Source: Methanobacteriota archaeon (GTDB taxonomy: Archaea > Thermoplasmatota > Thermoplasmata > RBG-16-68-12). Taken from it: a DNA stretch of 64,000 bases. This document shows, piece after piece, positions 32,333-41,350 of this stretch. Below the pieces are notes generated by a model. That model had not been told where the DNA came from. It ran no database searches and saw nothing but the letters and a program-made list of their open reading frames with translations. Each line of letters begins with the position of its first letter. The first letter of the stretch is position 1. The stretch covers positions 12,120-76,119 of the forward strand of contig VBMA01000075.1 in assembly GCA_005878985.1 (NCBI GenBank), given 5' to 3'. Made by a program: the position numbers and the translations under genes.

Positions 32333-32881
32333 TTAGGCGGCCGGTCCTTCCCGAAGTTCGCGCGCCAGGATGCTCATCCGCATGACGTTCACGAAACGTC
32401 CGTCCTTGTAGATGTCCTCGCGGTGCACGCCCTCCCGCTGGAACCCGAGGCGCTCGTAGGTCCGGAGGGCCCTCGTATTGTACTCGAGCACGTCGAGCGA
32501 GATCTTGTTGAGGCCCAGCACGTCGAAGCCGTACCGCAGGACGACGCGCATCGCCTCGGTGCCGTACCCGTGCGACCAGAACGACGGCTCGCCGATCACG
32601 ATCCCGACTTCCGCTTTGCGGTGGACGCGGTCGATCTTGTGCAGCCCGAGGTTCCCGACATGCTGCCCTTCGACCTCGATCGCGAAGATCTGTTCGTCCG
32701 TCCGCCGTTCGTAATCGCGGAACCACCGCTCTTCCTCCGCGAGCGTCACCGGGGCGTCCCGCCCGAGGAAGCGAATGATCTGCGGATCCGAGAACCATTT
32801 CACGCAGCGCCGAAGATCCGTCGAGGCGAGTGGCCGGAGGAGGACCCGTTCTCCGCGCAAAACCCGGCGGGCTTCCAGCAC
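32333..32881 (-). CDS. GNAT N-acetyltransferase (RimJ/RimL-like)
   Basis: GNAT fold with HGYGTEAMRVVLRYGF. Confidence 0.6.
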   Translation of the reverse strand: MLEARRVLRGERVLLRPLASTDLRRCVKWFSDPQIIRFLGRDAPVTLAEEERWFRDYERRTDEQIFAIEVEGQHVGNLGLHKIDRVHRKAEVGIVIGEPSFWSHGYGTEAMRVVLRYGFDVLGLNKISLDVLEYNTRALRTYERLGFQREGVHREDIYKDGRFVNVMRMSILARELREGPAA

Positions 32882-32921
32882 GCCCTCGGCACGCGGGCGA
32901 GGCGCTAAAGACCTTTGCCCG

Positions 32922-34898
32922 TCACGGATCCGATAGGGAGAGCGTAGCTTGCGTGGCCCCGCCGTCGTCGTCGCGGACGGTCAGCGTGACGGTGGACGAA
33001 CCAACCAGCGAATGTCCGTGCACGACGATCGCGTTGACATCGAACGGCGCGGTCCCTCCTTGGCTCTGAGGCGGATCCGGACTCACGCCGTTGTTCCAGA
33101 ACGTCTGCTCGACCGTCGTCCCGTCCCCGAAGTCCCACGTCGCGATGAAATCATCGCTGCCCGCGTCGTGAAGCGTTGCGCGGAACGTGATGCCGGCCTT
33201 GGCAACGAGCTGGACGAGGTCCGCCACGGTCCACGTCCACGTCGACGGATGCCGGACGTTGAAGTTGTGGAACATCCGCTGCTCCCGGCCATCCGGGAAC
33301 ACGACGACGATCCAGGCCGGGTTATCTCCACCGAGAGGACCGTTCACACGGTCGTTCAACGGGGTGTACGCGAGCATCGCACTGACGTGTTCCCGAAGGG
33401 AGAAGTTCAGGACGTCCGTGGTCGCGGCTTGTTTCGCCGGGCTTCCCGGTCTCCGAACGAGATCCAGGGCCGCCAGGACCCCGGTGTCCGAGTCGACGGT
33501 GAAGGAGACATCGTGCCACTTCTCGCCCGCGATTTCGATTCGGAACGACACCTGAGCGACCGAGTCGAGCTGCTCGATCTCGGGCGGGCGGTTGGCGATT
33601 ATCACGGTCGCAGCAGCCGAGGCAACGTGCGTTCCGTCGGAGACTTCGACGACCGCGGTCCTAGAGAAGTCGTCCGTGTAACGCGCCTCCGCCGTCGGAG
33701 ACGAAGACCATGGCGTATCGAACGTCCCGTCGCCCGTGAAGTCCCACCGGAACTGGAGTGGATCGCGGTCCGGGTCCGTCGAACCGGCCGCGGTGAGGAG
33801 GATCGTGTCCCCCTCCCGCCCGGCGTACGGGCCGCCCGCGTCCGCCTGGGGGGTGCCGACCGGGACGACGTCCACCAGGGAAGGTGCGGAGGCGGCATCC
33901 GCGATCCCGTTCCGGTCGATGTCGGATTGGGCTCGCGGCAGCTCCACCCGTCCCGCGGCGAGGGCCGGCGCAACGAGCGTGTACGAACGAATGAGGGGCT
34001 CGTACGCCGACGGATATTGCGGGTCCTCCGAGTTGCTCTCCAACGCCGCAGGCAGGTCGACGTACCACCGCAACGTTCGCGAGCCATCGTCGTGGCTCAC
34101 GATCTCGTCGGGCGGGACGGAAAAACTCCCCTCCTCCACACTCCAACCCGCAGGCACGGTGTCCTCCAGCGCTCCGTGGCTCACGTTCACGTCGTTCGTG
34201 ATCGTGTCCTCGAACGTGTACACCGCGATGTTCGTCGCATCGATCGTCAAATGAATCTGCTGGCCTGACGTCCCATCGACCAGGGTCCACAACGGCTCCT
34301 TGCCGACGACGACCGTCGGGTTCGTGCGCAAATACGTCCAGAAGTCGTCCTGGGTGTTCGAACCGGACCCTTCGTGGTGTTCGTTCGCGAGGATGGGACG
34401 CAAGGCGAAGGGCAACGTCTCTCCGCCGATCCGGTACGGGATCGCGGCCTGGGTGAATTGGAACTCCTCGGAACACCACCAGACGGGATGGGCGAGGAAG
34501 CCTTGCACGACCAGGTCTCCGTACGAATAGGTGAGCGAACCGTGCGCCGGCACCGTCTCCACGGTCAGGACCGCGTCTTGCGTGGTGCGAAGGGGATCCG
34601 GCGCCGGAGTCTGGAGCGGATGCGGGCTCATCAGCACGGCCTCCTCGGAGATAGCGACCGGCGTGTCGGCCGCGTTGTCGAGCCGGATGCCGACCGGCGA
34701 GGTGACCGTCTCTCCATTGCGGACGTAGGTGTCGTTGACGACCGTGGCCGTCACAAGGCCGCGTCCTGCCGCCTCCCAGAAGCTCATCGCGTCCGATTCG
34801 ACGCGAGACGAAGGTCGTCCGAGTTGCAACGATCCGACGGCGACGAGAGCCCCGACCAGGAGAATTACGACTATACCTCTCGGCGAAAAAACTCTCAT
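32922..34898 (-). CDS. large secreted protein with two C-terminal PKD domains
   Basis: Start at the internal Met MRVFSPRGIVVILLVGALVAVG (signal-peptide-like). Two PKD signatures (WDFTGDGTFD; WDFGDGTT). The upstream part of the track ORF is antisense to the HDAC gene. Confidence 0.6.
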   Translation of the reverse strand: MRVFSPRGIVVILLVGALVAVGSLQLGRPSSRVESDAMSFWEAAGRGLVTATVVNDTYVRNGETVTSPVGIRLDNAADTPVAISEEAVLMSPHPLQTPAPDPLRTTQDAVLTVETVPAHGSLTYSYGDLVVQGFLAHPVWWCSEEFQFTQAAIPYRIGGETLPFALRPILANEHHEGSGSNTQDDFWTYLRTNPTVVVGKEPLWTLVDGTSGQQIHLTIDATNIAVYTFEDTITNDVNVSHGALEDTVPAGWSVEEGSFSVPPDEIVSHDDGSRTLRWYVDLPAALESNSEDPQYPSAYEPLIRSYTLVAPALAAGRVELPRAQSDIDRNGIADAASAPSLVDVVPVGTPQADAGGPYAGREGDTILLTAAGSTDPDRDPLQFRWDFTGDGTFDTPWSSSPTAEARYTDDFSRTAVVEVSDGTHVASAAATVIIANRPPEIEQLDSVAQVSFRIEIAGEKWHDVSFTVDSDTGVLAALDLVRRPGSPAKQAATTDVLNFSLREHVSAMLAYTPLNDRVNGPLGGDNPAWIVVVFPDGREQRMFHNFNVRHPSTWTWTVADLVQLVAKAGITFRATLHDAGSDDFIATWDFGDGTTVEQTFWNNGVSPDPPQSQGGTAPFDVNAIVVHGHSLVGSSTVTLTVRDDDGGATQATLSLSDP

Positions 34899-34970
34899 CC
34901 CGCCCCGGTCCGCTCTCTGAATCGAACATATGAAATCGAGTTCGCTTAAGCGTGCCGACATAATTCTCAC
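34899..34970. promoter_or_regulatory. AT-rich divergent promoter region between the PKD-domain secreted protein and the HDAC gene
   Basis: A locally AT-rich 70-nt spacer containing ACATATGAAAT and CATAATTCTC TATA-like elements. Confidence 0.3.
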
Positions 34971-36077
34971 ATGTTTCGCGGCGTGATTTTCAATCGTGAT
35001 AAGCTCGTTCGACGCGGTCTCGACGGCCCTCGGCGATGGCTTGAAGTCGGCCCCGGCGCTCCCTCGGCCGTGCTCGTCTACGATCCGCGGTTCCTCGATC
35101 ACGTCGCCTCGCCCTTCCATGTGGAGCGGCCGGACCGGCTGCGATCGATCGTCTCGCACCTGGAAACGGCCGGCCTCTTCACGGACGTCGAGCAGGCGCC
35201 CCCCGCGACACGTCCCGAGGTGAAGCGGGTCCATCGGGATTCGTACCTCGAATCTTTCGAGAATCTGGGCGAAGGGCTCCTCGACCCTGAGACGGCCGTG
35301 CATCCGGGGACCTTCGACCTCGCGCTTCTCGCGGCGGGGGCGGTCCTCCACGGGACGCGCTCCGCGGCGCGGACCGGCCGTCCGACCGTCTCTCTCGTGC
35401 GACCGCCGGGGCATCACGCAGGCCCCGACTACGGAGGGGGCTTCTGCTATCTCAACAACGTCGCGATCGCTGCGGCGGATCAGGTCGCGGAGGGACGTCG
35501 GGTCGCGATCCTGGACTACGACGCGCACCACGGGAATGGGACCCGAGATATCTTCGCCGACTCCGCGTCCGTCCTATACGTGTCGACCCACGAGTACGGG
35601 ATCTTCCCGGGGACGGGTCCGGCCGAAGACATCGGCACGGGCGAGGGCCGCGGATTCACCGTCAACATCCCTTTTTCCGCGGGGTGCGGGGACACCTCGT
35701 ACCGCGCGGCCTACGACCGGGCCGTCGAGCCGATTGTCGAGCAGTTCCGACCGGACGTGGTACTCGTCAGCCTCGGGATCGACGCGCATTACCGCGACCC
35801 GATCACGTCGCTCGTCCTCTCCTCGCCGGGGTATGTCGACCTTGTGACCCGAAGCACGGCCTTGGCCGCTCGGTTGTGCGGCAACCGGCTGGCCCTGGCC
35901 TTGGAAGGCGGATATCATCTCGACGCGCTGGGCGAGGTCATCACCGCCGTGGTGGGGCGCCTTCGCGGTCGAACGACGCGGCTCGTCCTTTCCGAGAACC
36001 TGGACGACAACGTCCGCGGTCGACCCGCGATCGAGGCGACGATCCGGGCCCACCGACCGTTCTGGAACCTACGTTGA
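34971..36077 (+). CDS. histone deacetylase-family protein (AcuC/HDAC-like)
   Basis: GFCYLNNVAIAA and DYDAHHGNGT class I/II HDAC motifs. Confidence 0.75.
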   Translation: MFRGVIFNRDKLVRRGLDGPRRWLEVGPGAPSAVLVYDPRFLDHVASPFHVERPDRLRSIVSHLETAGLFTDVEQAPPATRPEVKRVHRDSYLESFENLGEGLLDPETAVHPGTFDLALLAAGAVLHGTRSAARTGRPTVSLVRPPGHHAGPDYGGGFCYLNNVAIAAADQVAEGRRVAILDYDAHHGNGTRDIFADSASVLYVSTHEYGIFPGTGPAEDIGTGEGRGFTVNIPFSAGCGDTSYRAAYDRAVEPIVEQFRPDVVLVSLGIDAHYRDPITSLVLSSPGYVDLVTRSTALAARLCGNRLALALEGGYHLDALGEVITAVVGRLRGRTTRLVLSENLDDNVRGRPAIEATIRAHRPFWNLR

Positions 36078-37220
36078 CGCGTGGTGCCGCTTCCGCTCCG
36101 TGACCTTGCGTTCCTTCTCCTTGACGATCCGCTTGTAGAGCGTGTCCAGGAGCTTGGTCAAGGCGACCCGGAGGTCCCAATCGAATTCGTGCGCATAGTA
36201 GATCCGGTGGCTCGTCGTGAAACGCGCGCGGAGCGAGTACTTCCAGCGGTCGCCTTCCGGCTTGTATTTCTGGAAGTGGATCGCGAGGGTCCGCGGTTGG
36301 ACGAGCGGCGCGATCCGACGCATCTCTTTCTGGATGACCTCGTAGATCTCATCGTACGTGTCCTTCGGCTCGTCCTCGAGACCGCCGACCTCGACGAAGA
36401 GTTGCTCGCGCTCCCGGAGGCCCGCCAGGAACGCCATCAAGTCCTGGCTCGTGATGATCCCCACGGGCTCGTCGTTCTCCGTGACGATGACCGACGAGAC
36501 GTGGTTCTTCGCCATCAGCTCCGCCGCACGCTGGACATCGGCCTCGGGGCCGACCGTGAGCGGCGGGTAGCGCATGACGCTCTTCACCTCCAGGGCGATC
36601 TTCTCCTCGCGGCCCGCACGGTCCCCGTACTGCTCGCGGACCTTCGGCTGGGCGAACAAGTCGACGATGTCCTTCAGGCCGACGACGCCTCTCAGGTGTC
36701 GGTTCTTGTCCACGACCGGGACGGATCGTTCGCCGAGGGACCGCATGATCTGGACCGCATGATCGACCGTGTCGTCCTCGGCGACAGCCTGAGGGTTCGG
36801 GGTCATGAATTCCGAGACGCGGACGCCCTCCAAGGCCCGATTCTCGACAAGCGCGCGGACGATGTCCGAGCGGGAGATGATTCCGAGGAGGCCCTTCCCC
36901 TTCATGACCGGGATCGCACGGAACCCGGCGGAGATCATCTTCTCCGCCGCCTCGGGAAGCGGCGTCTCCGGCGTAATTTCCGGCGGGTTTTCAAGTATCG
37001 TCGAGACCTTCGTGTTGGGCGGGAGGTTGCGTCGGCGCATGAGCTCGCGCATCGTCACGACGCCAACGAGTCTCTTGCGATCGAGGACCGGAAGCTCGTG
37101 GATGTCGTTCGACTTCATCTTGCCGAGGACATCGCCGAGGGTCTCGTCCGAGCTCGCGGTGACGAGCTCCGTGGACATGAAGTCGGACACCCGGAGGTCC
37201 TGGACCTTGTTCCGCTTCAT
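36069..37220 (-). CDS. CBS-domain protein (4 CBS) fused to a C-terminal RaiA/HPF-like (ribosomal S30AE fold) domain
   Basis: Four CBS repeats (e.g. VGIITSQDLM). The C-terminal ~100 aa (LFVEVGG..DTYDEIYEVIQKEMRRIAPLVQ..RTLAIHFQKYK..KYSLRARFTTSHRIYYAHEFDWDLRVALTKLLDTLYKRIVKEKER) align by eye to E. coli HPF/YfiA. Confidence 0.6.
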   Translation of the reverse strand: MKRNKVQDLRVSDFMSTELVTASSDETLGDVLGKMKSNDIHELPVLDRKRLVGVVTMRELMRRRNLPPNTKVSTILENPPEITPETPLPEAAEKMISAGFRAIPVMKGKGLLGIISRSDIVRALVENRALEGVRVSEFMTPNPQAVAEDDTVDHAVQIMRSLGERSVPVVDKNRHLRGVVGLKDIVDLFAQPKVREQYGDRAGREEKIALEVKSVMRYPPLTVGPEADVQRAAELMAKNHVSSVIVTENDEPVGIITSQDLMAFLAGLREREQLFVEVGGLEDEPKDTYDEIYEVIQKEMRRIAPLVQPRTLAIHFQKYKPEGDRWKYSLRARFTTSHRIYYAHEFDWDLRVALTKLLDTLYKRIVKEKERKVTERKRHHAST

Positions 37221-37301
37221 GAAGAACCCGCCCCGGGGAGAGAGCGATAGCGGGCGCGCGTATAAGAAAAGTACGGCCCGGTGGAGATGCGCCCGAGCCG
37301 G

Positions 37302-37916
37302 CTAGGTCGTCTTGCGAGCCTCGATGATGAAACGGCTTTCGGTGAGAATGAGGCCCCGTCGGGCGGCGAGCCGGTCCTCGGCATGGAGAAGGGCCGCGAG
37401 GTCCTTCCCCAACGGATCGGAGTCGGGGATTGTCCATGGCGAGATGCAAAGCAGATACACGAGCTCGCCGAGTCCGCGGTACGCCGACCGAATGTCGTGC
37501 GTCTTCGCGACGCGGACGGTCATCCCCCTCTGCCGCAAGCCGGAGACGTACCGATCGAGCAGAAGGCCGAAGTCTTGCATCCGGGGGAAGAAGGGTCGCA
37601 ATTCCTCCCACTCGTTCTGTCCGATCTGCTGCGTGAGGAGGGATCCGCCGCGTCGGAGGACTCGGTGGACTTCGTCGGGGTCTAGTTCTTCATGTCGATC
37701 GAGGACGAGGTCGAAAGCTCCGCTTTGGAACGGGAGACGGAGGCTGTGGGCGCGGACCACTTCGACCTCCAGCCGGGATAGTCGCCGCTTCGCGATCGGT
37801 GCGTTCACGGCCCACGGCTCCGACGCGATGGCCCGTCCATGATATCCCGCACAGAGTTCCGCGAAGAGCTCCCCAGCACCTGTCCCCAGGTCGAGCACAG
37901 ACCGGGCCTGGGCCAA
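37302..37916 (-). CDS. class I SAM-dependent methyltransferase
   Basis: Motif I VLDLGTGAGE. Confidence 0.6.
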   Translation of the reverse strand: MAQARSVLDLGTGAGELFAELCAGYHGRAIASEPWAVNAPIAKRRLSRLEVEVVRAHSLRLPFQSGAFDLVLDRHEELDPDEVHRVLRRGGSLLTQQIGQNEWEELRPFFPRMQDFGLLLDRYVSGLRQRGMTVRVAKTHDIRSAYRGLGELVYLLCISPWTIPDSDPLGKDLAALLHAEDRLAARRGLILTESRFIIEARKTT

Positions 37917-38048: not shown

Positions 38049-38138
38049 CGAGTCGCCTGCTGCGGCCCTCCGCGGCATCCAGAGTGTGAATCGGCGATTG
38101 CCACGATAAAGTTCTTTGACTTCGTCTCGATTCGCTTC

Positions 38139-38417
38139 GTGGTGAAGGCCCGCGCGGTCGTCGTCTTCCTCGGGCGCGTGCAAGGGGTCAACTTCCGAGC
38201 GTATTGTGCCGAGAAGGCGGAAGCGATGGGACTCGACGGCTACGTCCAGAATCGATGGGACGGGAGCGTCGAAGCGGTGTTCGAAGGCGAACGATCCACA
38301 ATCGAGACCTGCATCGAGTGGAACAAGACGTCGCAACCCTACGCCCGAGTTGAATCGGTCGAGGTCTCCTGGTCCGAGCCGAACGGAGAATTCCAGGGTT
38401 TTCGCGCCCTTCGCTAG
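38139..38417 (+). CDS. acyP: acylphosphatase
   Basis: VVFLGRVQGVNFRAYCAEKA...GYVQNRWDGSVEAVFEG is the acylphosphatase signature. GTG start; the upstream part of the track ORF is not coding. Confidence 0.7.
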   Translation: MVKARAVVVFLGRVQGVNFRAYCAEKAEAMGLDGYVQNRWDGSVEAVFEGERSTIETCIEWNKTSQPYARVESVEVSWSEPNGEFQGFRALR

Positions 38418-38439
38418 CTGGGTGGAGCGGCCGTGCGAG

Positions 38440-39273
38440 TCAGTCCATTTGGATGCGGTACGTCTTCTCAGGCAAGTCGTGGTGGATGGACCACGCCTGC
38501 TCCGTGGTGAGAATTCCTTTCTCGAGCCACGCCCTCGTCTTCTTCGGCACCGTCGCGGGTCCGAGGACGGCGCCAGGCCGTAACGGGTCGTCGATGTAGT
38601 CCGTCTCGAGGAGGAACCGGGGTCCACCTTTCAAGGCTTCCACGACGAGTTCTTCCTTCGCCAGGATCGAGGGGACGAGTCCCGCGGTGTCCGCCAGTCG
38701 CGTGAACGGCGTCGAGTGATGCTTCACGACGTACTTGGGATCCAGCCCTGCCCGTCTGGCCATTGACGCGAACTCCGCGAACGTCGCGGGGGTAGGGTCC
38801 TCGGTGTGCAGGATGACCGCGCATTCGAGCTCTCTCGCCTGAGCCATCGCGTACGCGACGATGCCGTTGCACGCCCGTACGATGTCCGCGCCCACCGGAA
38901 AATGAGGTCGCCCGACTTCGCCGAAGGCGACGGCCTTCCCTTCGCGAATGTGCTTTGCGGCTAGGTCGATCGCTCGAGTCGTCGCGTCCACCGCAGCCGC
39001 GTCGCCGAGCGTCTCCCTCAGATGAATGAACTCGACCGGATACGGCCCGAGCGCGACAAACACCTTGAGGTGAGTGGCGGTGCGGACGGCGTCCGCCATC
39101 GAGAGCGTGAGTCCATACGCCGCTCGGTAGTCGTCAGCGCGGGTGATGGGCGCTTCGGGGTACGGGCTGTGCGTCAGCAAGATCGCCGTGCCGCCGGCCT
39201 TCTCGAACGCCTTCGCGGCCTCGACGCCTTTGAAGCTCGCACGCAGATGGATGTGGTTGTCGAAGACGGCCAC
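38440..39273 (-). CDS. TatD-family metal-dependent hydrolase
   Basis: FDNHIHL N-terminus and LLETD C-terminal motif. Confidence 0.55.
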   Translation of the reverse strand: MAVFDNHIHLRASFKGVEAAKAFEKAGGTAILLTHSPYPEAPITRADDYRAAYGLTLSMADAVRTATHLKVFVALGPYPVEFIHLRETLGDAAAVDATTRAIDLAAKHIREGKAVAFGEVGRPHFPVGADIVRACNGIVAYAMAQARELECAVILHTEDPTPATFAEFASMARRAGLDPKYVVKHHSTPFTRLADTAGLVPSILAKEELVVEALKGGPRFLLETDYIDDPLRPGAVLGPATVPKKTRAWLEKGILTTEQAWSIHHDLPEKTYRIQMD

Positions 39274-39297
39274 GCATCGCCAAACGAGGACGGTCTC

Positions 39298-39762
39298 TTA
39301 GGCTTTCCCGGTTGCCATGCGACTCTCGGTCGAAACGGCGACGCGTTCTCGAAGCGCGCGGTTCATCTCCTCGAAGCCGCGGCGGGCGTCGCGATTCAGG
39401 CTCCGGGCGAGCAGCGGGACGAACAGACCCCGGAAGCGTTCCCGTTGAACGAACCGGGAACGCATCGGCCCGAGCGCCTCAATCTGAAAGATGTGCTCGC
39501 CGTCGAAGAGGCGAGGGAGGCCGACCCGGCCGAGCCAGCGCAGCTCGCGATTCGGGACGACGGCCTTCACGGTGGGTCGAAATCGCATTGGGCGCGTACC
39601 CGACGCCCCGAGGAGCACATCGAGTCGGGAACCGACCAGCGCCTGGCCGCGAATCGATCGGATGAACGGGTTCCAATCCGAAAACCTCTCGAAATCGAGG
39701 AGGACGGCCCACACGCGTTCGGCGGGCGCGTCGATTTCGATTTCGGTCCGAAGTTCTAACAT
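39298..39762 (-). CDS. SRPBCC (Bet v1-like/cyclase-dehydrase) family protein
   Basis: IEIDAPAERVWAVLLDFERFSDWNPF is an SRPBCC signature. Confidence 0.55.
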   Translation of the reverse strand: MLELRTEIEIDAPAERVWAVLLDFERFSDWNPFIRSIRGQALVGSRLDVLLGASGTRPMRFRPTVKAVVPNRELRWLGRVGLPRLFDGEHIFQIEALGPMRSRFVQRERFRGLFVPLLARSLNRDARRGFEEMNRALRERVAVSTESRMATGKA

Positions 39763-39765
39763 CGT

Positions 39766-40320
39766 CTAGCGGAGCAAGCCAGCGGCTTTCAGCTCCTGCG
39801 TGATCTTCTCGACCGCCTCCTCGACGTCGGAAGGCTTGCGCGCCCCGGTGCAGACGAGCTTGCCGCTGCCGAACAGGAGGACGACGACTTTCGGTACGTC
39901 GATGCGGTACACGAGACCGGGGAATTGCTCCGGCTCGTACTCCACCTTCTCGAGGCCGAGCGAGATCGCGATTGCGTTCAGGTTGATTTCTGTCCCCAGG
40001 TCCGACGAGGCGACAATGTTCTGGACCTCGATTACTGGATTCTTCTTGATCGGGATGCCTGCGGCCTCGATCTGCTTCGCGACCATGTCGATCGCGGTCT
40101 TGACGTGCTCGAGGCTCTTCGCTCCCGTGCAGACGACCTTCCCGCTCCGGAACAGGAGCGTCGCGGTCTTCGGCTCCTTCAATCGGTAGATGAGTCCGGG
40201 GAATTGCTCCGGCTCGTATTCGGCCCCGCCGAGGGCGAGGGCGATCGCCTGGAGGTCGAGTTCCTCCCCGAGGGAGGTCGAGGCGACGACGTTCTCAATC
40301 TTGATTTTGGCCAAAGTCAC
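39766..40320 (-). CDS. tbp: TATA-box binding protein
   Basis: Two direct repeats with [22 protein letters not shown]-type motifs; GTG start. Confidence 0.9.
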
Positions 40321-40387
40321 ACCACCGTGTCGTTGCCATCTGGAGGCGCCGCAGCGGGTTTGGTACGGAGGGGAGTTAAATAGTGGT

Positions 40388-41350
40388 TTATAAGCTTTGA
40401 TGGCGAACGTTCGGGCCCGAAGCTTCGTGGTGGGCCGCTTCCCTCGCTCGCACGAGCGCGTACAGAGCTGCGTTCATAGGGACGAGAATCCGATCACGTT
40501 CTGCGGCCCGCACAATCGATCCGGTGATTGCGTCAATTTCCGTTCGATGGTGTCGGTCAAGATCCTGAAGCATGCTCGCCCGGTTCGAAGCGGTCCGCTT
40601 CGCGACGAGGAGCGTGCGGTGTCGCAACTCTTCATAATCGACGCGCGCCCCTTCGGCCTTCGCAACCTCGGTCGCCTCGCGGCACACCATCTCGACGAGG
40701 GCGAGAAGATGCTTGTCACGTACGATTCGTCCGTTCGCGAGTTCTGCGAGGGCTGCGATCGGGTTGATGGACGCGTTCACGACGAGCTTGGACCACAGCT
40801 CCGTTCGGATGTCGCTCGTGACACTCGCGACGATTCCCACGTCCGCAAGAAGATCCCGCAACCGGACGAGATCCGATTCACGCACTCCACCCCACGCACC
40901 GAGCACCGTTTCGCCAACGCCCGCATGACGGATCTCCCCGGGGCCGACGAACGTGACTCCGTGCGCCGTGGTTCCCGCGACGACGCGCCGCGCGGTCTTC
41001 GCAATTGTCTCCGCGTTCCCGAGGCCATTTTGAAGGGTGACGAAGATCGCTCGGTCGGCGAAACGACGTAACCCGAGCATCGCATTGGCGGTATCGTACG
41101 ACTTGGTTGTGATGAACACGAAATCCGGTCTCGCCTTCTGCGGCACACGGGTTGCCGCGTGAGGTTTCGCAATAATCGCCGTCTTTCCGCGAACGCGGAG
41201 GCCGTGGGATTTGATCGTCGAGATGTGCTCTGCCCTCCCGATAAGCGTCACATCGTGACGTTGAGAGAGAAGAGCCCCAAAGAAACTTCCGATCGCGCCG
41301 GCGCCGAAGACCAGAACTTCCACAATTTCTGTGATGCGGGCGCACTCCAA
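40388..41350 (-). CDS. panE: 2-dehydropantoate 2-reductase
   Basis: N-terminal Rossmann [14 protein letters not shown]; ApbA/PanE family; TTG start. Confidence 0.7.

Follow-up and report, generated by a model that had tools for sequence, protein, structure and literature searches.

A CBS–HPF fusion protein of the archaeal HibA/AHA ribosome hibernation family encoded by an uncultured Thermoplasmata archaeon

Archaeal ribosome hibernation factors in which a CBS module is fused to an HPF/RaiA-like domain were described in publications of 2025–2026. HibA of Pyrococcus abyssi (PAB0961, Q9UYR4; PDB 9SR9–9SRF), reported together with hibA of Thermococcus barophilus by Madru et al. (Nat Commun 2026, PMC13324472), defines a family consisting of a four-CBS module (residues 1–269) followed by an HPF/RaiA-like C-terminal domain (residues 270–392), found in 47% of archaeal genomes. 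AHA is the Haloferax volcanii protein HVO_2384, with 3,160 homologs in 17 phyla (bioRxiv 2026 preprint, PMC12934967); the association of CBS domains with a hibernation-factor domain in HVO_2384 had already been noted (mBio 2025, PMC12607858). Here we analyze a gene located at positions 36069–37220, on the minus strand, of a 64,000-nt stretch of the archaeal contig VBMA01000075.1 (assembly GCA_005878985.1, positions 12,120–76,119; the whole stretch is referred to as the window), the product of which is an ordinary member of this known and well-characterized family.

The mode of action of HibA and AHA has been studied by cryo-electron microscopy on 70S ribosomes and by in vitro translation inhibition (PMC13324472, PMC12934967). 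Their C-terminal domain lies in the 30S subunit's mRNA/tRNA channel, where its contacts include h44, h18, h23, h24, h28 and uS12, and their CBS module is found on the large subunit, in the tRNA sites of the 50S (PMC13324472, PMC12934967). In HibA, the CBS module takes three positions, at the peptidyl-transferase center (PTC), at uL5 and at the L1 stalk, and in the PTC state a loop of CBS3 wraps the universally conserved A2602-equivalent (PMC13324472). Deletion mutants display delayed regrowth, and in stationary phase their 70S ribosomes or their ribosomal proteins are lost (PMC13324472, PMC12934967). The CBS module of HibA has a higher affinity for AMP (Kd 12 µM) than for ADP or ATP (PMC13324472), and ribosome-bound AHA holds two AMP molecules (PMC12934967).

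Other known systems resemble one or the other half of these proteins. The bacterial and plastid proteins HPF, RaiA (YfiA, protein Y), long HPF and PSRP1 display a homology to the archaeal C-terminal domain that is detectable at the profile level, and in HibA and AHA this domain takes up the place that the bacterial factors have on the 30S subunit. In long HPF, a C-terminal dimerization domain gives rise to 100S ribosomes. The bacterial proteins differ from the archaeal ones by the absence of a CBS module, and the archaeal domain differs from theirs by a longer β2–β3 hairpin and a longer last helix; for HibA/AHA, two archaeal-specific insertions of this domain are described, at β13–α11 and β14–β15. 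Their identity (bacterial and plastid proteins) to the domain encoded in the window is 9–19% in Foldseek alignments. SriA–D/ARC-P and ARC-A of Methanosarcina and Methanolobus, and Dri of Pyrobaculum, are ribosome-silencing factors built of CBS domains, in the form of stand-alone or duplicated tetrads. Unlike HibA, they have no HPF domain and they bind the ribosome differently, the CBS module of Dri being oppositely oriented at the PTC; in phyletic distribution, they and HibA are for the most part mutually exclusive, and the ARC/Sri system, devoid of HPF, is the only one for which a release triggered by ATP has been reported. Finally, the γ subunit of AMPK shares with the window protein a four-CBS disc with adenine-nucleotide sites, putative in the latter, but it regulates a kinase and not the ribosome, lacks an HPF domain and is only 14–18% identical.

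The window gene, which has an ATG start and a TAG stop (36069–36071), encodes 383 residues, the extent being supported by the list of open reading frames (ORFs) and by the homologs. With phmmer, the protein matches chain 9sr9_H (392 residues, deposited as 'Dehydrogenase'), which is P. abyssi HibA, with an E-value of 2.2e-31 over residues 10–370. A profile of the family matches the same chain with an E-value of 1.7e-35, and the alignment is collinear, its posterior probability staying high across the C-terminal domain. BLASTP gives 31% identity to P. abyssi HibA over 283 residues. Both proteins are similar in length (383 versus 392 residues) and display four CBS domains and an HPF/RaiA domain in the same order. 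The fusion of the two modules in an archaeon, which had been put forward in a reading of the DNA made from the sequence only, is confirmed, and the protein has a full-length homolog of known structure; the accompanying remark that no characterized example was known is out of date, since the reports on HibA (PMC13324472), AHA (PMC12934967) and HVO_2384 (PMC12607858) describe this very architecture. In addition, close homologs are annotated by JGI as 'CBS domain-containing protein/ribosome-associated translation inhibitor RaiA'. Compared by its published description, AHA has the same two-module architecture and presumably belongs to the same family. The window protein nevertheless differs from its characterized counterparts: its identity to HibA over the CBS module is close to 31% and its HPF domain is undetectable in pairwise comparison; its host is mesophilic, of high G+C content and not a hyperthermophile; and its isoelectric point (pI) is 8.8, as opposed to 4.87 for the acidic Haloferax protein (PMC12607858). 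Altogether, the window gene is very probably an ortholog of the archaeal hibernation factor HibA/AHA, and its product would silence idle 70S ribosomes and carry an adenylate pocket between CBS3 and CBS4.

The N-terminal module (residues 1–269, positions 36414–37220, minus strand) contains four tandem CBS domains, i.e. two Bateman pairs, as seen with Pfam, AlphaFold2 (AF2) and Foldseek. The Pfam CBS family (PF00571) matches four stretches of the protein (E = 1.6e-57), and the full-length AF2 model (mean predicted local distance difference test score, pLDDT, of 80; mostly 80–92 in the CBS module) displays four β-α-β-β-α units from residues ~10 to 267, so that the two CBS pairs predicted by eye in the first ~280 residues are borne out. 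The full-length model retrieves CBS tetrads with Foldseek (SriA, Dri, MJ1225 and AMPK-γ, E = 6e-21 to 1e-14), with SriA (9znf_4) at 6e-21, Dri (9e6q_3) at 9e-17 and AMPK-γ at ~1e-16 to 1e-14 with a template modeling (TM) score of ~0.52–0.68; the hits listed for this model are CBS tetrads only, HibA being absent among them. Judged by bit score, the CBS module taken alone has HibA as its best solved match (100 bits); 9l96_a follows with 70 bits and the Sri proteins with ~63 bits, all chains other than HibA scoring 70 bits or less. A stand-alone CBS-tetrad factor (Sri/ARC or Dri) and a CM-3 regulator (HhpR) were also considered and were ruled out by the presence of the HPF domain; the NCBIfam HhpR model scores 62 bits on the window protein, for a cut-off of 520.

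CBS3 contains a long loop (residues 190–207, AQPKVREQYGDRAGREEK, positions 36600–36653, minus strand) that is, according to the AF2 model and the alignment, the counterpart of the 'PTC loop' of HibA and of 'loop 3' of AHA. It covers exactly the same residue range as the PTC loop of P. abyssi HibA, with the same length, and aligns to KPRFKAQYGELAGEK of the latter (QYGDRAGRE versus QYGELAGEK). It is also the only internal segment of low confidence in the AF2 model (pLDDT below 50). Its two glycines, G199 and G203 (G-x3-G), are kept in 31 and 32, respectively, of the 46 diverse proteins of the family that were compared. A putative site for adenine nucleotides between CBS3 and CBS4 was examined through CBS3 residue D184 and the ribose-phosphate motif of CBS4, G254-I-I-T257-S-Q-D260 (positions 36441–36461, minus strand), which was recognized by its conservation. 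Among the same 46 proteins, this G-h-h-T-x-x-D motif is the best conserved of the four CBS motifs (G in 45, T or S in 43 and D in 41 sequences), and its key residues and the loop glycines are the best conserved positions of the family. AHA inserts its CBS3 loop into the PTC and binds AMP at the CBS3/CBS4 junction, and the corresponding motif is conserved in the window protein. The conservation of the CBS4 motif fits the AMP/ATP site located between CBS3 and CBS4 in HibA and AHA; by analogy, the window protein probably binds an adenine nucleotide at this place.

Because the CBS module dominates the Foldseek match of the full-length model, a separate model was made for the C-terminal domain (positions 36072–36413, minus strand), which is basic (pI 9.3). 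Its elements predicted over the last ~110 residues are β (275–279), α (286–303), β (309–322), β (325–336), β (340–347) and α (350–381), and they coincide with the β-α-β-β-β-α succession that had been listed by eye. A search with the last 113 residues in a representative library of 1.8 billion proteins gave 212 relatives with an E-value of 1e-3 or lower; most of them are 360–400 residues long and match through their C-terminal part, and some are stand-alone proteins of ~105–130 residues. From these, 58 diverse C-terminal domains were aligned to build a profile, hereafter A2. Searched against the PDB at E-values up to 10, A2 matches 26 chains, namely P. abyssi HibA (E = 2e-6), 9l96_a, 9i5v_14 and 23 bacterial HPF, RaiA, YfiA or protein Y chains, that is, nothing but HibA-like or bacterial HPF-family proteins. 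Individually, 50 of the 58 domains match the Pfam family Ribosomal_S30AE (PF02482), the best with an E-value of 2e-10. Similarly, the first 35 Foldseek matches of the C-terminal model are all HPF, RaiA, protein Y, PSRP1, MPY or RafH (TM score 0.53–0.82). Thus, profile and structure searches, the check by which the sequence-only reading was to stand or fall, uphold its proposal, made by eye, that the last ~100 residues adopt an HPF/YfiA-like fold. The β14–β15 hairpin (KYKPEGDRWKY) is longer than that of Escherichia coli HPF, in which alignment to the archaeal profile opens a 7-residue gap. The C-terminal end of the last helix and the tail (residues 362–383, YKRIVKEKERKVTERKRHHAST, positions 36072–36137, minus strand) are strongly basic, with nine K or R for three D or E and a pI of 10.6, and the tail residues KEKER and RK are invariant within the clade; in the window protein, this basic tail might contribute to ribosome binding. 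Two other profile searches had a narrower reach: from a word-indexed protein database, the profile of the C-terminal alignment retrieved fragments for the most part, along with a small number of HPF-like proteins standing alone, and the full-length profile reached only other Thermoplasmata (35–57% identity).

Several observations weigh against the assignment of the window protein to HibA/AHA. As a single sequence, it scores 16.4 bits with PF02482 over its full length and 19.7–20.2 bits over its C-terminus alone (20.2 bits, E = 1e-3, for the last 101 residues), below the gathering threshold of 23.7 in both cases; the last 113 residues retrieve only a spurious repeat-protein match from the PDB with phmmer, and no HibA; BLASTP against the C-terminus of P. 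abyssi HibA finds no match to the window C-terminal domain. The alignments supplied to AF2 were shallow (32 and 16 sequences, with at least 68% identity), and a single model out of five was confident for the C-terminal domain (81.8 versus 54.7 or less for the others). On the functional side, experiments are confined to the P. abyssi, T. barophilus and Hfx. volcanii members, none coming from Thermoplasmata, and AMP or ATP at 5 mM caused no clear change in the binding of HibA to the ribosome in vitro (PMC13324472). NCBIfam has no match for the C-terminal domain either. It was because detection from the single sequence failed that the family profile and the structural model were needed.

If the C-terminal domain were an unrelated α/β domain mimicking HPF, for instance a double-stranded-RNA-binding domain (dsRBD) or some other small RNA-binding fold, then the protein would be a generic CBS regulator. 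The weakness of the single-sequence tests goes in this direction, as does the presence of dsRBDs low in the Foldseek list of the C-terminal model (E = 0.02–0.05), where these and other folds appear past an E-value of 0.01. Yet the profile matches are exclusively HPF/RaiA and HibA chains, most relatives match PF02482 on their own, the HPF-family proteins form an uninterrupted series at the head of the Foldseek list with TM scores reaching 0.82, and the alignment with the solved HibA (9SR9) is collinear through this region. We therefore regard a mimic as very unlikely. As judged from the profiles and the predicted model, the similarity of the window domain to HPF/RaiA is beyond chance, at the profile or structure level only; scores below the Pfam threshold combined with homology at the level of the family profile and of the fold point to a distant archaeal branch rather than to a canonical Pfam member.

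Transposed to the window protein, the data on HibA and AHA suggest the following scheme. The CBS tetrad, tethered at the N-terminus of the HPF domain, would occupy vacant tRNA sites of the large subunit, and the long CBS3 loop could enter the PTC. With both subunits bound, the idle 70S ribosome would be held together, translation would be blocked and rRNA would be protected against degradation during starvation or stress, a protection that would allow faster regrowth later on. The CBS3/CBS4 pocket probably takes AMP and, less tightly, ADP or ATP, through which it could report the energy status of the cell. Ribosome binding, translational silencing and AMP binding are all expected of the window protein by analogy with its characterized homologs. 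The energy-sensing step is a conjecture, since AMP and ATP have no visible effect on the ribosome binding of HibA. Hence, of the 'nucleotide-gated translational silencing' that the sequence-only reading had envisaged, the silencing part agrees with what is known of the characterized homologs, and the gating part goes beyond the published evidence: it is a reasonable hypothesis, unproven even for HibA.

The window has a uniform G+C content of 60–67% and consequently contains many long chance ORFs, so we considered the idea that the hibA frame itself is spurious or decaying. In support of this idea, the region is rich in overlapping long ORFs, among them a 389-codon shadow ORF on the plus strand (36081–37250) that is antisense to the entire hibA gene. 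The conservation of the frame refutes it. A protein database search gave 391 homologs of window HibA at an E-value of 1e-10 or lower, most of which, among the matches listed, are 382–384 residues long and 73–94% identical; invariant residues are spread along the full length of the protein in an alignment of 32 sequences; hibA orthologs lie in a conserved synteny in 27 genome contigs, and a promoter-like element is conserved with them; last, AF2 predicts a confident fold. Judging from the same-length homologs, the length-wide invariant residues and the conserved synteny, the hibA frame is a genuine gene and not a high-G+C chance ORF, and the probability that we attach to a spurious frame is negligible.

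The contigs nearest to the window are metagenome-assembled genomes (MAGs) labelled Thermoplasmata or 'Methanobacteriota' archaeon, with VBLZ01000102.1 at 98% identity. The host is an uncultured archaeon of the class Thermoplasmata: its archaeal nature follows from the presence of a gene for the TATA-binding protein (TBP) 2.5 kb from hibA and from the closest contigs being Thermoplasmata MAGs, and the '30cm' depth tags in isolate names suggest a soil habitat. The occurrence of the factor in such an organism is consistent with its reported presence in ~47% of archaeal genomes. What the analysis recovered from raw sequence is a published discovery, namely that the bacterial HPF/RaiA module exists in Archaea, fused to an AMPK-γ-like CBS sensor; what the window member adds is limited to the occurrence of the factor, together with the PTC loop, the nucleotide motif and a conserved promoter-like element, in an uncultured high-G+C Thermoplasmata archaeon, apparently from soil. 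In the 64-kb window, we found no second CBS-tetrad or HPF gene, and scans of positions 1–64000 returned neither a tRNA gene nor any match reaching the gathering score of an Rfam family.

The region upstream of hibA contains a TATA-box-like element, TTTTCTTATA (positions 37261–37270, minus strand), located 41–50 nt upstream of the ATG, an AT-rich decamer in surroundings of 64–65% G+C. The sequence TTT(A/C)TTATA recurs with unchanged spacing in almost every one of the related loci compared (L001–L031), often preceded by GAAAGAAC. Between this element and the ATG lies a conserved CGCTATCG block (positions 37245–37252, minus strand), which is found exactly or with one or two changes in most of these loci and is a possible initiator or 5′-untranslated region (5′-UTR) element. 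The order of the blocks in positions 37221–37275 (minus strand) is (GAAAGAAC)TTT(A/C)TTATAC, ~8 nt, CGCTATCG, then CTCCCC...GGCGGGTT directly before the ATG; a 5′-UTR hairpin might arise from the CCCC/GGGG pair, or the pair might contain the ribosome-binding site. From this arrangement, hibA appears to have its own promoter. Note that regulation by Phr has been described in Thermococcales, whereas the element identified in the window is a clade-specific TATA-like block, Phr not having been searched for.

The genes surrounding hibA form a synteny block, EndoV/MGMT – ApbA (ketopantoate reductase) – TBP – (SRPBCC) – TatD – acylphosphatase (on the opposite strand) – HibA – ... – PKD protein, which is kept across Thermoplasmata (window positions 38127–41350 and related loci) with HibA identities of 42–98%. 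A SAM-dependent methyltransferase gene (Methyltransf_25/11, 204 residues, positions 37302–37916, minus strand) separates the acylphosphatase gene from hibA; it occurs in the window and in the nearest relatives only (loci L005 and L007–L011), the other members of the clade having an unrelated 122-codon ORF or nothing at this place. Downstream, the stop region of hibA overlaps by 9 nt with that of a convergent gene of the HDAC family (positions 34971–36077, plus strand; Pfam E = 3e-81), and one or two genes past the latter lies a GNAT acetyltransferase gene (positions 32339–32932, minus strand; SpeG/PseH-like, below cut-off). This HDAC/GNAT arrangement is kept in 26 of 27 related genome loci (HibA 62–98% identical) and is absent from four loci of a sister Thermoplasmata clade (HibA 42–44% identical), in which the remaining synteny is kept. 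A family-wide HDAC/GNAT linkage was accordingly rejected: given its absence from the sister clade, the HDAC–hibA convergence looks like clade synteny rather than a functional link valid for the family. This HDAC neighbor, convergent, overlapping and restricted to the clade, is the sole lead of mild novelty. Convergent overlapping transcription could couple the expression of hibA and of the HDAC gene. A control of HibA activity or abundance by reversible lysine acetylation in this clade is improbable in our view; if real, an archaeal hibernation factor would receive, besides its AMP input, a second one from acetyl-CoA/acetylation. An acetylation link is conceivable but weak by analogy with Haloferax, where HVO_2384 co-purifies with the catalytically dead GNAT Pat2 (PMC12607858), and since the GNAT is SpeG/PseH-like and below cut-off, a pair acting on polyamines or small molecules is an equally good reading.

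The same neighbors bear on the possibility that the window protein is HibA by descent but works in this lineage as an AMP-dependent regulator of non-ribosomal partners, or is sequestered by them, ribosome binding being secondary or lost. Acetyltransferases or deacetylases and DNA replication or recombination proteins would be the candidate partners. In pull-downs from Thermococcales, HibA was indeed accompanied by proteins of recombination and of replication initiation, and a partner that sequesters it is suggested by the authors (PMC13324472); the co-purification of HVO_2384 with Pat2 and the clade-wide HDAC overlap with its nearby GNAT are in the same vein. On the other hand, the sister clade keeps hibA in the same synteny without HDAC or GNAT neighbors, the GNAT may be a small-molecule acetyltransferase, and conservation is strong, within the clade as well as within the family, for the HPF domain, the basic tail and the PTC-type loop, which argues for retained ribosome binding. 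We hold such a change of role to be improbable and retain the reading of the window protein as a HibA/AHA-type hibernation factor.

A few additional observations concern gene calls around hibA. The 869-codon ORF of the PKD-domain protein (positions 32922–35531, minus strand) extends antisense into the HDAC gene, and the true gene probably encodes ~650 residues, as in locus L003. In locus L001, the call of a 128-residue gene upstream of hibA also looks like a shadow ORF, antisense to the acylphosphatase gene. A 693-residue database entry, P0319, combines TatD and CBS domains and may be a gene fusion or a gene-calling artefact.

Other observations concern proteins related to HibA. PDB chains 9l96_a (406 residues) and 9i5v_14 (401 residues) contain a CBS tetrad and an HPF domain, and are retrieved by the CBS module as well as by the C-terminal profile; they are probably further archaeal ribosome–HibA-like complexes, and a literature search found no paper mentioning PDB 9L96. 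Seven of the stand-alone proteins of ~105–130 residues that match the HibA C-terminal domain are P0159, P0196, P0208, P0210, P0239, P0255 and P0285. The stand-alone HPF-like proteins, one of which comes from an Aenigmatarchaeota (DPANN) MAG, fit the CBS-less archaeal 'HPF/RaiA-like' proteins of Madru et al. (PMC13324472).

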